Source: Candidatus Moraniibacteriota bacterium
GTDB taxonomy: Bacteria > Patescibacteriota > Minisyncoccia > Moranbacterales > UBA1568
Length of the DNA stretch: 64,000 bases
Direction of reading: 5' to 3'
NCBI GenBank assembly: GCA_016699385.1
Contig: CP064974.1
Location: 692,654-756,653 of the forward strand
The notes beneath the pieces are model-generated. The model was given only the letters and a program-made list of their open reading frames with translations. It did no database searches and was not told the origin of the DNA. Positions 30,999 to 34,238 of the stretch are shown piece by piece (positions within the stretch are counted from its first letter, which is position 1; the number at the start of each line of letters is the position of its first letter). The position numbers were made by a program, and so were the translations under genes.

Positions 30999-32873
30999 TT
31001 ACCGAACGCGGATAAGAATAGTCTTCGATGTGCTATTGCCGACATCGTCATACACTTTGAGTTCGAACATGTGAATACCGACTGGTGTATTCGCTGGAAT
31101 ATTGAAAGATTTACTCTTTGTCGTCTTCCAGTATCCAAGGAATTGATAGCGATAATGGTCAATATCCTTGTTGTCTACGGCATCCCACCATACTTTTTCA
31201 CCACGCGCCTTGGAGAGGAACAGAGGGAGATCGGTAATCTCCGGATCCTTATCATCTACGAAAATGGTATAAGTGGCCGATTTATCAATCTCATTTCCAT
31301 TCATATCAAGGTATCGGATGGAGTATCGGAATGATCCGTTCTCTTTTTCCGTCACCTTAATCGACCAGTCTCCATTACCGTTCACACTGGTTTTATCCTT
31401 CAATTTTCCTTCACGATAAACCTCAACCTTCCCATTCTTTATATCATCATCTGACCCCTTGAAAGAGAGTCTCGAATCATTTGTCATAATCTTATCGCGC
31501 TTTCCAAACTTCGTTTTTTCACCGACTACCTCAATAGAATCTCGCGAGAACTTTCCGCGATCATTTGAAGAAACATCGACCGTGCAGGACTGCTCAATGT
31601 CTGGATTGCCACCCGAGCACCCACTGGGAATCCCTACTGAATCACGACTTTGCTTCCCTCCCAAGCATGACCCCCATTCACCATAGGAGAAGCTCGAGCA
31701 AACCACTGTCGGAGGTGTATAGGTGCAACTCTGGCTCGAGGACGGCGGAGTACCACCGGAGCACCCTGCCGGGACACCGGACACCGTACGAATCTGCGTA
31801 TTATCTACCTGGCAATCACCCCACGAAGACGTCGTAAAACTGGTACACGTTGTATCTCCCCCGGTATAGGTACAGCTCTGCGTCGATGCTGGTGGAGTAC
31901 CGCCGGAGCATCCAGCTGGGACGCCCGTCACCGTCTGTGTCTGTGTGCCATTCGGCTGGCACTCTCCCCATCCTGACTCCGTAAAGCTCGTACAGGTTGG
32001 CGGCGTATAGGTACACGACTGTGTTGTCACTGCTGCCACACCACCCGAACAAACATCTGGAACAGTCGAGACAACCGTTTGCGTCTGCGTACCATCGGGC
32101 TGGCACGCGCCCCATCCGGAATAGACATAATCAGTGCACGCTGGCGCACCAACAAGTGCCCGAATACCAGAGACGCTCGCGAGCAAATCATTGCCATTTG
32201 CCCCTTCCTCAATCACATCTGAATCAGTTGAATTATCTGCTCCCACATAAGTAAACCGGATATTATTCGTCGAGGAAGATACCGATCGAAGCGCTTTGAA
32301 CGTTAAAGTTGCCAAAAGACCGGCATTGTTCCGAACACCCGGCGCCGGCTTGGCAAGTGTCAAAGAAATCGTCCCACCAGCCGTATCATTGTCTACGATT
32401 TGACAGGGATTTCCCTGATAGACACAGCTATTACTGACGCCAAATATAGATCCACTCGTATCCCATCCGGTCAGCTGGAAATCCGCCGGGTCATAGGTCA
32501 CAATAGCGCGCGTCGCCACCACATCAACACCACCCGTATCCAACACCAAATCTACAGAGAACGTATCGTCTTGCGCAACATTGACCGTTGTCCCGTCACC
32601 CGATGCATCCGGCGACGTCATAGAAAGCGTCGCCGTTCCACTTGCCTTGGAGAGACTCTCGATTTCCAGTGACACACTCCATACAAATGATACAAAGGCG
32701 CCGGACACAAACGCAAGCATGAAAAGCCCTTGCCATGTCTTTACACGTGCACGCGACACAAAAACCCATGACTTCCCGAGAAGCGGGAGGGTATCGTTTG
32801 CAACACTATCAATATGCCGATTCATGGTCCCACCTGTTTGAAGTGGATCTTTTTTTTGTTTTTCTTCAGCCAT
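30999..32873 (-). CDS. Membrane-anchored protein with a cohesin-like domain and four TSP1-like Cys repeats
   Basis: N-terminal TM helix and a cohesin-like beta-sandwich region. A repeat of about 43 aa (Y.GWG.CQ..GTQTQTV...P..CSGG.....TQSCTYT) occurs four times. 624 aa. Confidence 0.45.
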   Translation of the reverse strand: MAEEKQKKDPLQTGGTMNRHIDSVANDTLPLLGKSWVFVSRARVKTWQGLFMLAFVSGAFVSFVWSVSLEIESLSKASGTATLSMTSPDASGDGTTVNVAQDDTFSVDLVLDTGGVDVVATRAIVTYDPADFQLTGWDTSGSIFGVSNSCVYQGNPCQIVDNDTAGGTISLTLAKPAPGVRNNAGLLATLTFKALRSVSSSTNNIRFTYVGADNSTDSDVIEEGANGNDLLASVSGIRALVGAPACTDYVYSGWGACQPDGTQTQTVVSTVPDVCSGGVAAVTTQSCTYTPPTCTSFTESGWGECQPNGTQTQTVTGVPAGCSGGTPPASTQSCTYTGGDTTCTSFTTSSWGDCQVDNTQIRTVSGVPAGCSGGTPPSSSQSCTYTPPTVVCSSFSYGEWGSCLGGKQSRDSVGIPSGCSGGNPDIEQSCTVDVSSNDRGKFSRDSIEVVGEKTKFGKRDKIMTNDSRLSFKGSDDDIKNGKVEVYREGKLKDKTSVNGNGDWSIKVTEKENGSFRYSIRYLDMNGNEIDKSATYTIFVDDKDPEITDLPLFLSKARGEKVWWDAVDNKDIDHYRYQFLGYWKTTKSKSFNIPANTPVGIHMFELKVYDDVGNSTSKTILIRVR

Positions 32874-32963
32874 AGTGCTGCAAAAAGATATTTAAAATTA
32901 TGGGTATTGCTAATTTCGAATAGGTATTAGATACTGGAGTCATAACCCATAACTCCACGATCT

Positions 32964-33353
32964 ATGCCCTGTCCCAAATGTGCCTCCGAACGCTTCACAA
33001 AGAACGGTTTTCTGAAACAACGCCAACGGTATCTCTGCCAAGAATGCGGGTACACCTACTCAACACCTCACGGTCACGGTAAACCCAAAGAAATGAAGCG
33101 TCAGGCACTTCGGCTGTATCTCGAGGGAATGGGATTTCGGGGTATCGGACGGATTCTCGGAGTAAGCAATGTGGCGGTTTTGAAGTGGATGAATCTTGCC
33201 GCCGATCGTTTGCGGATGCATCTTCAACGGGAAATGCCGAAACAATCGAAGAAAATATCGGTGATGGAATGGGATGAGTTGTGGCATTTTGTTCGAAAAA
33301 AAAGTCAAAACTCTGGATCTGGCTGGCAGTGGATAGAGAAACAATGGCCATAG
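32964..33353 (+). CDS. insA: IS1 InsA-like protein (zinc finger plus HTH); N-terminal part of the transposase
   Basis: CPKCASERFTKNGFLKQRQRYLCQEC parallels the IS1 InsA Cys4 motif. GFRGIGRILGVSNVAVLKWM is the HTH. Confidence 0.7.
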   Translation: MPCPKCASERFTKNGFLKQRQRYLCQECGYTYSTPHGHGKPKEMKRQALRLYLEGMGFRGIGRILGVSNVAVLKWMNLAADRLRMHLQREMPKQSKKISVMEWDELWHFVRKKSQNSGSGWQWIEKQWP

Positions 33354-33658
33354 TTGATTTTGCGGTAGGAAGCCGAGGAGCGAGTACTGGAAAAAAGCTC
33401 TGGAAGAAGATACGGCATTTGGATTGTTCGCTTCATACGTCGGATTATTGGGAAGCCTATCGGAAGTTTTTGCCACAGGATAAGCATATCACTTCAAAAG
33501 CGGAAACGTTTTCAGTTGAAGGAATGAATAATCTGCTCCGGCATTTCATCGCTCGTTTCAAAAGAAGGACGCATTGCTATTCGAAGAGTGTAGTCATGGT
33601 GCTGAAGACGCTTTTGCTCTTTCAGTATCGGGAAATGGTGGTTTCTATTTTAAGTTAG
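33281..33658 (+). CDS. insB: IS1 InsB-like transposase catalytic part, in the -1 frame relative to InsA; the frames switch within an A8 run
   Basis: KLWIWLAVDRETMAIVDFAVGS...TSDYWEAYRKF...SKAETFSVEGMNNLLRHFIARFKRRTHCYSKS parallels IS1 InsB (RWLFYAYD...MTDGWPLYE...[32 protein letters not shown]). The frame switch occurs inside the DDE domain at AAAAAAAA (33293-33300). Confidence 0.65.
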   Translation: MAFCSKKKSKLWIWLAVDRETMAIVDFAVGSRGASTGKKLWKKIRHLDCSLHTSDYWEAYRKFLPQDKHITSKAETFSVEGMNNLLRHFIARFKRRTHCYSKSVVMVLKTLLLFQYREMVVSILS

Positions 33659-33719
33659 CAATACCAAATTATGATCTCCGTAAAAAATAATCTCAAGAAA
33701 GTGCCCGAGATGGTAGCCT

Positions 33720-34238
33720 TCACGATACTGGAAAATCAAATGACTTCAATACATCTGCAATTGCCACTATACCTACCATAATATCATCACTACTCGTCAC
33801 TGGGAAGACACTGAGCCCTGTTTCTTTGAATTTCCCAATAAGTTCCTGAACCGACATACTTTCTAGCACTACCTGGCATGGCGAACTCATGATATCCTTT
33901 GCTTTTGCTTGCATAAGACGATCCACCATTTCTCGCCGACTCCCATTCATCTCACTCGCAACACGCATCTTCCGCATGAAATCTATATATGAGGGGAGAT
34001 AGATATTCGACGAATCTTTCGTGAAAAAGTCCGTCTCCGTAATAATACCAACTATTTTCCCTCCATCAAGCACCGGAACGCCATGAATGCGATTCTCAGT
34101 AAGAATCGACGCCACCTTCTGCAAAGGTTCATTCGGTTCAACAGAAATAACCGAAACGGTCATAATATCCCTCACAACAGAATCACTCATACGTGCAAGA
34201 AAATATATAGAAAATATTCCTTCAGAGGAAGTACTCAC
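33720..34238 (-). CDS. CBS-domain pair protein
   Basis: Two CBS motifs (VRDIMTVSVISVEPNEPL...HGVPVLDGGKIVGIITETD and AKDIMSSPCQVVLESMSV...LSVFPVTSSDDIMVGIVAIADV). Confidence 0.75.
   Translation of the reverse strand: MSTSSEGIFSIYFLARMSDSVVRDIMTVSVISVEPNEPLQKVASILTENRIHGVPVLDGGKIVGIITETDFFTKDSSNIYLPSYIDFMRKMRVASEMNGSRREMVDRLMQAKAKDIMSSPCQVVLESMSVQELIGKFKETGLSVFPVTSSDDIMVGIVAIADVLKSFDFPVS

Follow-up and report, generated by a model that had tools for sequence, protein, structure and literature searches.

A 64,000-nucleotide stretch of the genome of a Candidatus Moraniibacteriota bacterium (contig CP064974.1, positions 692,654 to 756,653; hereafter the window), a member of the candidate phyla radiation (CPR), carries a 763-bp insertion sequence (IS) of the IS1 family in which two overlapping open reading frames (ORFs) meet at a run of eight adenines (A8). 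This is very probably an active element with a programmed recoding site at the run, a judgement that leaves the choice of slippage mechanism aside. An intact, probably autonomous element has recently moved into a 76-bp spacer, duplicating 8 bp of its target, and its transposase would be obtainable solely through programmed recoding at A8. Standard decoding would yield the 129-aa ORF A protein that, by analogy with InsA of IS1, would bind the termini of the element and have a regulatory or inhibitory role. In a minority of expression events a shift to the -1 frame at A8 would produce a 231-aa ORF AB protein uniting the catalytic residue D104 with D161 and E186. Two routes could lead to this protein, either the addition of one A by RNA polymerase (transcriptional slippage) or a -1 slip of ribosomes on A_AAA_AAA.

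Insertion and boundaries of the element

The target of the insertion was the 76-bp spacer that separates a gene with a CBS domain from one with a cohesin domain, and the proteins flanking the element are identical to QQR77191, QQR77194 and QQR77195. An empty version of the site was found in a contig from the European Nucleotide Archive (ENA; L102) that was 100% identical to the window up to position 32902 and 99.9% identical from position 33666 on. The two alignments overlapped by exactly 8 bp, AAATTATG, which is present once in the contig and twice in the window. The same empty site with a single AAATTATG was observed in a slightly diverged strain (L100), and both contigs are metagenomic and derive from strains closely akin to the host. 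A Logan contig (L099) was 100% identical to the filled allele, and a further sequence (L101) breaks off within the right end of the element, as expected of a repeat. The existence of filled and empty alleles of one site means that the insertion is real, recent and polymorphic in nature. A fresh 8-bp target duplication had been taken as a sign of recent transposition in a preliminary description of this DNA, and recent transposition is now proven by the empty sites.

That description had also reported an intact 763-bp IS1-family element with matching terminal inverted repeats, and both points were borne out upon re-inspection. Homology to 11 other full-length copies runs exactly from base 1 to base 763, and the inverted repeats of 21 nt are complementary at 18 of 21 positions (Table 1). 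The 11 copies were fetched by way of ORF A homologues, ten of them at ~90% and one at 75% nucleotide identity, and three more were obtained from a metagenome scan. A degenerate inverted repeat pattern matched the window twice, at the two ends of the element, against 0.03 matches expected, and at least two matches were obtained in none of 100 shuffled sequences. No further copies of the element were found in the window. The G+C content of the element (45%) is nearly equal to that of the window (47.5%), and no match to a sigma-70-like promoter for the transposase was found on the plus strand of the left inverted repeat.

Members of the IS1 family are about 740-1180 bp long in ISfinder and have terminal repeats that begin with GGnnnTG. 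The short length of the element and the start of its inverted repeat (GGTATTG) fall within this description, and its 8-bp target duplication is in line with the 8 or 9 bp reported for IS1 (PMC12903888).

Table 1. Positions in the window of the element, its ends, its reading frames and the codons of the predicted catalytic residues.
Feature	Position	Strand	Description
Left target duplication copy	32895-32902		8-bp AAATTATG; exact direct repeat outside the left inverted repeat; single in the empty sites L102 and L100
Element	32903-33665		763 bp
Left inverted repeat (IRL)	32903-32923	+	GGTATTGCTAATTTCGAATAG; 18/21 complementary to IRR; homology with other copies starts exactly at 32903
ORF A	32964-33353	+	129 aa; zinc ribbon (CxxC...CxxC), helix-turn-helix, linker, beta1 with D104, out-of-frame tail of 16 residues at the C-terminus
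Codon of D104	33273-33275	+	ORF A frame
ORF B frame	33281-33658	+	Open, -1 relative to ORF A; overlaps ORF A at the A8 run; stop codon TAG within IRR
A8 slip site	33296-33303	+	Frame 0 CGA AAA AAA AGT, contains A_AAA_AAA; encodes K112-K114
ORF B part after slip	33302-33658	+	-1 frame; beta2 to C-terminus of the DDE core
Codon of D161	33443-33445	+	ORF B frame
Codon of E186	33518-33520	+	ORF B frame
Right inverted repeat (IRR)	33645-33665	-	Homology with other copies stops exactly at 33665
Right target duplication copy	33666-33673		8-bp AAATTATG, directly outside IRR

The A8 run in the catalytic core

Two short genes are called in the element, one of 129 aa and one of 104 or 125 aa. The first corresponds to ORF A and is identical to QQR77192.1, annotated as 'IS1 family transposase'. 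Translation in frame 0 up to the A8 run and in the -1 frame thereafter resulted in a conceptual protein of 231 aa, the -1 fusion, that matched the NCBIfam profile NF033558 'IS1 family transposase' from position 1 to 199 of 199 with 214.6 bits (cut-off 100). ORF A alone covered positions 1-117 of this profile and ORF B alone positions 105-199. Pfam PF03400 (DDE_Tnp_IS1) matched residues 100-215 of the fusion with 76.8 bits (cut-off 24.1; an E-value of 1.1e-18 is listed for the ORF B part), and the frame switch at residue 113 consequently falls within the match to the catalytic domain, where the preliminary description had placed it. The NF050000 IS1/IS1595 Zn-binding domain was matched with 38.7-40.9 bits (cut-off 28; 40.9 bits for ORF A), the zinc-binding residues C3, C6, C25 and C28 being conserved. 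A match to HTH_23 stayed under its threshold (17.9-19.6 bits), and an AlphaFold model of the fusion has helices at residues 42-53, 58-65 and 69-90.

The DDE triad was assigned from alignment and structure model. D104, D161 and E186 were invariant in 13 sequences, namely the element and 12 single-ORF relatives, and so was K113 at the slip site. The model (mean predicted local distance difference test score, pLDDT, 87; predicted template modelling score, pTM, 0.74) shows the order of elements of an RNase H-like fold, and its best matches in the PDB were the ISCth4 transposase, retroviral integrase cores and the Mu transposase. Strand beta1 spans residues 97-110 and carries D104, a turn of sequence RKKK spans 111-114, and beta2 and beta3 span 115-124 and 129-136. 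These are followed by a helix at 140-150, by beta4 at 154-160 with D161 directly behind it and by a long helix at 183-196 that carries E186. According to the model, the A8 run encodes the turn of the beta1-beta2 hairpin of the RNase H-like core. Of the predicted triad, D104 is read in the frame of ORF A and the remaining two residues in that of ORF B, so that neither ORF alone would give an active enzyme. The profile match, the zinc motif with a helix-turn-helix and the predicted DDE triad on an RNase H-like fold all point to the IS1 family. Single-ORF members of the family are recognised by ISfinder too, and the position of the shift is therefore not a defining feature of it.

IS1A of E. coli (NC_000913.3, 19796-20563, encoding InsA, InsB' and InsAB') was used as the reference for comparison. 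The two elements are alike in length (768 and 763 bp), in an N-terminus of zinc finger and helix-turn-helix followed by the DDE core, and in having two overlapping ORFs with ORF B in the -1 frame and an A-rich slip site. Their termini start with GGTGATG in IS1A and GGTATTG here, and 67 identical residues are shared by the 231-aa fusion and the 232-aa InsAB' in pairwise alignment. In E. coli IS1, the A6C slip site follows residue 86 of InsA, directly after the helix-turn-helix and ~24 residues before the Asp of AEMDEQW, which places the slip upstream of the whole core and all three DDE residues in the InsB' frame. In the present element, in contrast, the A8 slip comes after residue 113, 27 codons later than in E. 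coli IS1 and 9 residues past the first catalytic Asp, at a point that aligns with GAKSRQ of InsAB'. The earlier remark that the canonical IS1 shift lies upstream of the catalytic domain is thus correct. The ORF A product of IS1 can act as a DNA-binding regulator (PMC12903888).

The switch of frames at A8 had previously been left open between a differently placed programmed slippery site, a phase-variable on/off switch and a sequencing or indel artefact. In every one of the 17 close copies the run was A8 and identically placed, the set comprising the NCBI genome, a copy from a second metagenome-assembled genome (MAG; L007), the Logan contig L099 and 14 contigs from ENA, Logan and JGI. These stem from independent assemblies and span 100%, ~90% and 75% nucleotide identity, and no A9 or A7 variant was present among them. 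When compared with the ~90% copies, the ratio of nonsynonymous to synonymous substitution rates (dN/dS) was 0.025 for frame 0 ahead of the run and 0.07 for the -1 frame behind it, at a dS of 0.46-0.66, and the wrong-frame control for the downstream part gave 1.4-1.6. As both halves are under strong purifying selection at such dS, the split arrangement has been maintained for long, a result that is incompatible with a sequencing error or recent inactivation.

If the frame switch came from an indel introduced in sequencing or assembly, or from a mutation that recently inactivated the gene, this copy would in truth have a single ORF or be a dead pseudogene. Indels in homopolymers are frequent errors, and several distant relatives within the IS1 family do have a single ORF (P0002, P0003, P0005, P0009 and an ISAcma4-family copy). 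The A8 run is nevertheless identical in all of the above copies, the -1 arrangement recurs in 55 of 68 non-redundant relatives described below, and the dN/dS downstream of the run is that of a translated frame. A dead copy would furthermore not yield identical copies at new sites or polymorphic insertions. We consider an artefact or pseudogene to be the least credible of all the explanations.

A switch at the DNA level, in which replication slippage toggles the run between A8 and A9 and the transposase between off and on in subpopulations, is also highly improbable. Homopolymers are mutable, near-identical pairs of distant metagenomic elements were seen one A apart (L037 with A8 in the -1 arrangement, L042 and L034 with A7 in the +1 arrangement), and copies of a Nostoc IS with A8-A10 are reported in one study (PMC1088944). 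The close copies from many samples and assemblers are however invariably A8, with no in-frame A9 version, and the arrangement has persisted over a dS of >0.5 with both frames selected. A search of 5.8 billion protein sequences gave many 129-aa ORF A proteins at 57-90% identity, ending in ...DE(L/M)WH(F/Y)xxKK and a short out-of-frame tail. No single-ORF, full-length version at >50% identity was found among the top hits, which speaks against a run that often switches to an in-frame A9 in the DNA. The run-length differences seen among more distant elements (L037 and L042 or L034; L036, L038 and L040; L107) are either natural polymorphism or homopolymer sequencing error.

The slip site across the IS1 family and the route of recoding

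A metagenome scan resulted in 80 related loci, from which the frame relation of the N- and C-terminal halves was read at 68 non-redundant junctions. A run of A7-A11 was found at the same spot in all 68, with the DE(L/M)W motif before it and the (L)WIW strand after it. The C-terminal half was in the -1 frame at 55 junctions (A7 in 12, A8 in 33, A9 in nine and A11 in one), in frame at eight (A7-A10) and in the +1 frame at five (A7 in three and A9 in two). Once one A was inserted, 45 of the 55 -1 junctions had an uninterrupted ORF of 205 aa or more with an N-terminal CxxC, and the split arrangement reaches across a wide clade in which protein identity is 30-65%. In a large branch of the IS1 family, a slip site within the core is the norm. 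The proposal of a programmed slippery site holds in that the run and the -1 relation are conserved at 10% and 25% nucleotide divergence and across this clade with both halves selected, but the unusual placement is not peculiar to this element.

The arrangement is already present in annotated relatives. Elements of Nostoc sp. C057 (a cyanobacterium; WP_179076330.1), Methanomethylovorans hollandica (an archaeon; WP_156811300.1) and Tenacibaculum finnmarkense (Bacteroidota; WCC41133.1) have A8, A8 and A7 runs, respectively, between DE(L/M)x(T/H)(F/Y) and (I/C)W(L/I)W, with the same -1 relation at only 37-45% protein identity to the present transposase. Their coding sequences (CDS) extend over 692, 683 and 659 nt and correspond to -1 fusions of 230, 227 and 219 aa. 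As all three extents are 3n-1, that is -1 fusions plus stop codon, the RefSeq pipeline evidently already models the programmed frameshift. The element of Gloeothece PCC 7424 has A9 in the +1 arrangement and a RefSeq CDS of 3n+1 nt, and the ISAcma4-family copy has A6 with its halves in frame. ISDge2 shifts directly after the helix-turn-helix, as does E. coli IS1. There are thus two positions of the slip site in the IS1 family, one behind the helix-turn-helix (E. coli IS1, ISDge2) and one in the core after the first catalytic Asp, the latter with a run of A7-A11 in every junction surveyed (n=68).

The in-core type of recoding site is probably shared by ISCaa4, an IS1-family element of Amoebophilus asiaticus with two overlapping ORFs for which a 226-aa transposase was predicted through a -1 shift at AAAAAAG, and whose nearest relatives are elements of Methanosarcinaceae (PMC3196728). 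This is the family that includes the Methanomethylovorans element of our survey. ISCaa4 differs in that a downstream stem-loop was predicted for it (PMC3196728), whereas none of significance was found in the present element. Conserved A8/A9 runs in IS elements were interpreted as sites of transcriptional slippage by Baranov et al. 2005 (PMC1088944). These elements and an IS630 element of Roseiflexus resemble the present one in a run of 8-9 As at the overlap of orfA and orfB and in fusion by an A added to the transcript (PMC1088944, PMC5009743). The text does not give the IS families of its Nostoc and Deinococcus elements with A8/A9 runs, and a link of these to the present clade is tentative (PMC1088944). 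The stimulator hairpin described for the Roseiflexus element (PMC5009743) has a parallel at 33267-33294 of the window that relatives do not share as a conserved feature (mean z = -0.09 over 55 junctions).

In diverged homologues the slippery run and the relation of the two frames are accordingly conserved, with both ORFs under purifying selection, as is characteristic of recoding sites. The native slip-site sequence is CGAAAAAAAAGT; a designed version with a shorter run that retains an A_AAA_AAG heptamer would read CGCAAAAAAGGT, and one with a broken run AAGAAGAA. The same RKKKSKL junction is predicted for -1 ribosomal slippage and for one added A, and with only the sequence at hand a firm choice between the two mechanisms cannot be made. 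Transcriptional slippage is slightly preferred here as the principal route, with a likely contribution of ribosomes. The 55 -1 junctions have at least seven As throughout, and across junctions the run is met in each of the three codon phases. Intact +1 arrangements on A9 were found in three samples (L036, L038 and L040) and, as these and that of Gloeothece PCC 7424 cannot be decoded by -1 ribosomal slippage, they fit the transcriptional route. For IS elements, +1 shifts have been ascribed to transcriptional realignment and not to ribosomal frameshifting (PMC5009743). In reporter cassettes frameshifting grows with the length of the run, from 10% at A7 to 40% at A9 and 63% at A11 (PMC3711429).

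Folding of the 60 and 100 nt downstream of the run gave no significant RNA structure (z = +1.26 and 0.03), a result that was also counted in favour of transcriptional slippage. Upstream, a hairpin of 10 bp with four G-U pairs (33267-33294, -7.3 kcal/mol, z = -3.05) ends one base before A8. It was rejected as a conserved signal, the mean z over the 55 non-redundant -1 junctions being -0.09. A hairpin of -4 kcal/mol or lower that ends within 3 nt of the run occurs in just 19 of these 55, and the value is -3.0 in the 75% relative L018. The hairpin arises because the codons for D-E-M-W-H-F are self-complementary and was hence not counted as a signal. Conserved stimulatory RNA structure was consequently found neither in the downstream fold nor in the upstream hairpin over 55 junctions. 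Stimulators are optional for recoding. None is established for E. coli IS1 (PMC4066793).

Purely ribosomal -1 frameshifting on A_AAA_AAA, as on A_AAA_AAC in E. coli IS1, would compete with transcriptional slippage over the mechanism alone and is a possibility to be taken seriously, even if we do not favour it. The run in the window is phased as CG[A AAA AAA] AGT, which is a canonical X_XXY_YYZ site, and an in-frame A_AAA_AAN heptamer is present in 51 of the 55 -1 relatives. IS1 proper frameshifts at about 1-2% (PMC12903888), ISCaa4 has been interpreted likewise (PMC3196728), and motifs of the A_AAA_AAN type predominate in the IS1 and IS3 families (PMC4066793). On the other hand, runs of only six As were absent from the -1 members, even though A6N is enough for IS1 in E. 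coli. Conservation does not extend to the phase of the run, four A7 runs in phase 0 lack a canonical heptamer, and neither the intact +1 configurations on A9 nor the lack of a conserved downstream stimulator is accounted for by ribosomal slippage. Codon phase was dropped as a discriminator between the two mechanisms since any A8 contains an in-frame A_AAA_AAN.

Several observations weigh against transcriptional slippage as the main route. Given the in-frame heptamers in the window and in the 51 relatives, ribosomal frameshifting alone could explain the -1 cases, and in E. coli a run of A7, as seen in 12 of 55, is rather short for polymerase to slip efficiently. Few +1 configurations were found, and with 99.6-100% identity among themselves they are shallowly diverged and could be copies that were recently inactivated. 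The invariant Lys-rich turn may in addition explain part of the A-richness through constraint on the protein.

Surroundings of the insertion and implications

A 100% identical 763-bp copy is present in a different context in another Moraniibacteriota MAG (GCA_049663265.1; L007 446-2300), without target duplication and 115 bp from an IS5-family transposase gene, an arrangement that suggests an IS cluster or rearrangement between copies. The ~90% variant was seen in no fewer than 10 different contexts, with its ORF A indexed in 72 collection blocks, and its copies adjoin IS5-family and IS200/IS605-type genes. The assumption that IS elements are rare in such genomes hence does not apply to this lineage. 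Perfect 8-bp duplications were observed in four copies with both flanks, the flanked copies including L016, L008/L010 and L009. One copy is truncated to the first 460 bp of the element (L017 322-781), and in another (L014 872-1632) the left inverted repeat is 2 bp shorter, beginning with GGTATCTAAC, and the copy adjoins a Y1 (IS200/IS605-type) transposase gene.

The 624-aa cohesin-domain gene (30999-32873, minus strand) has its ATG at 32873, and the element lies 22 bp upstream of this start. The encoded protein has four tandem Cys-rich modules (...SGWG.CQP.GTQTQTV...CSGG...QSCTYT...) with weak matches to Pfam Cohesin and Big_13 and looks like a repetitive cell-surface protein. A lone sigma-70-like site in the region 32750-33800 (TTGAGA-17-CATAAT, minus strand, 33668-33696) is a weak match, 1.8 such sites being expected by chance, and its -10 hexamer falls within the right copy of the target duplication. 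The insertion, next to 32873-32902, may conceivably have parted the cohesin-domain gene from its promoter. Codons 5-9 of this gene (MAEEKQKKD) contain a T8 at 32850-32857, that is A8 on the coding strand, which is also present in L100 and is one of four A/T runs of at least 8 in the window. This T8 may be a site prone to slippage within a gene for a surface protein.

Within the IS1 family, the element seems to be a member without a name as yet, residing in a CPR host. An explicit statement that the slip site splits the catalytic triad was not found in the accessible literature; the arrangement itself is not new. That selection has favoured the placement as a 'split active site' design throughout a large IS1 branch, with transcriptional slippage as its main mode of decoding, is a speculative and rather unlikely reading. 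If such a design were true, no internally initiated ORF B product could be active, and the ORF A product, carrying beta1, could be a dominant-negative partner of the transposase. It would then also be the first documented case in which a CPR bacterium uses programmed transcriptional realignment.

For annotation, the two short genes in the element are to be read as one transposase gene that requires -1 recoding, and the same applies to hundreds of metagenomic 'transposase-like' fragments that end in ...DE(L/M)WH(F/Y)xxKK. The A7-A11 runs of the in-core type form a natural series that lends itself to telling ribosomal and transcriptional slippage apart. The element is an IS that is demonstrably mobile in natural populations of Candidatus Moraniibacteriota, which makes it useful for the study of genome dynamics in CPR bacteria.

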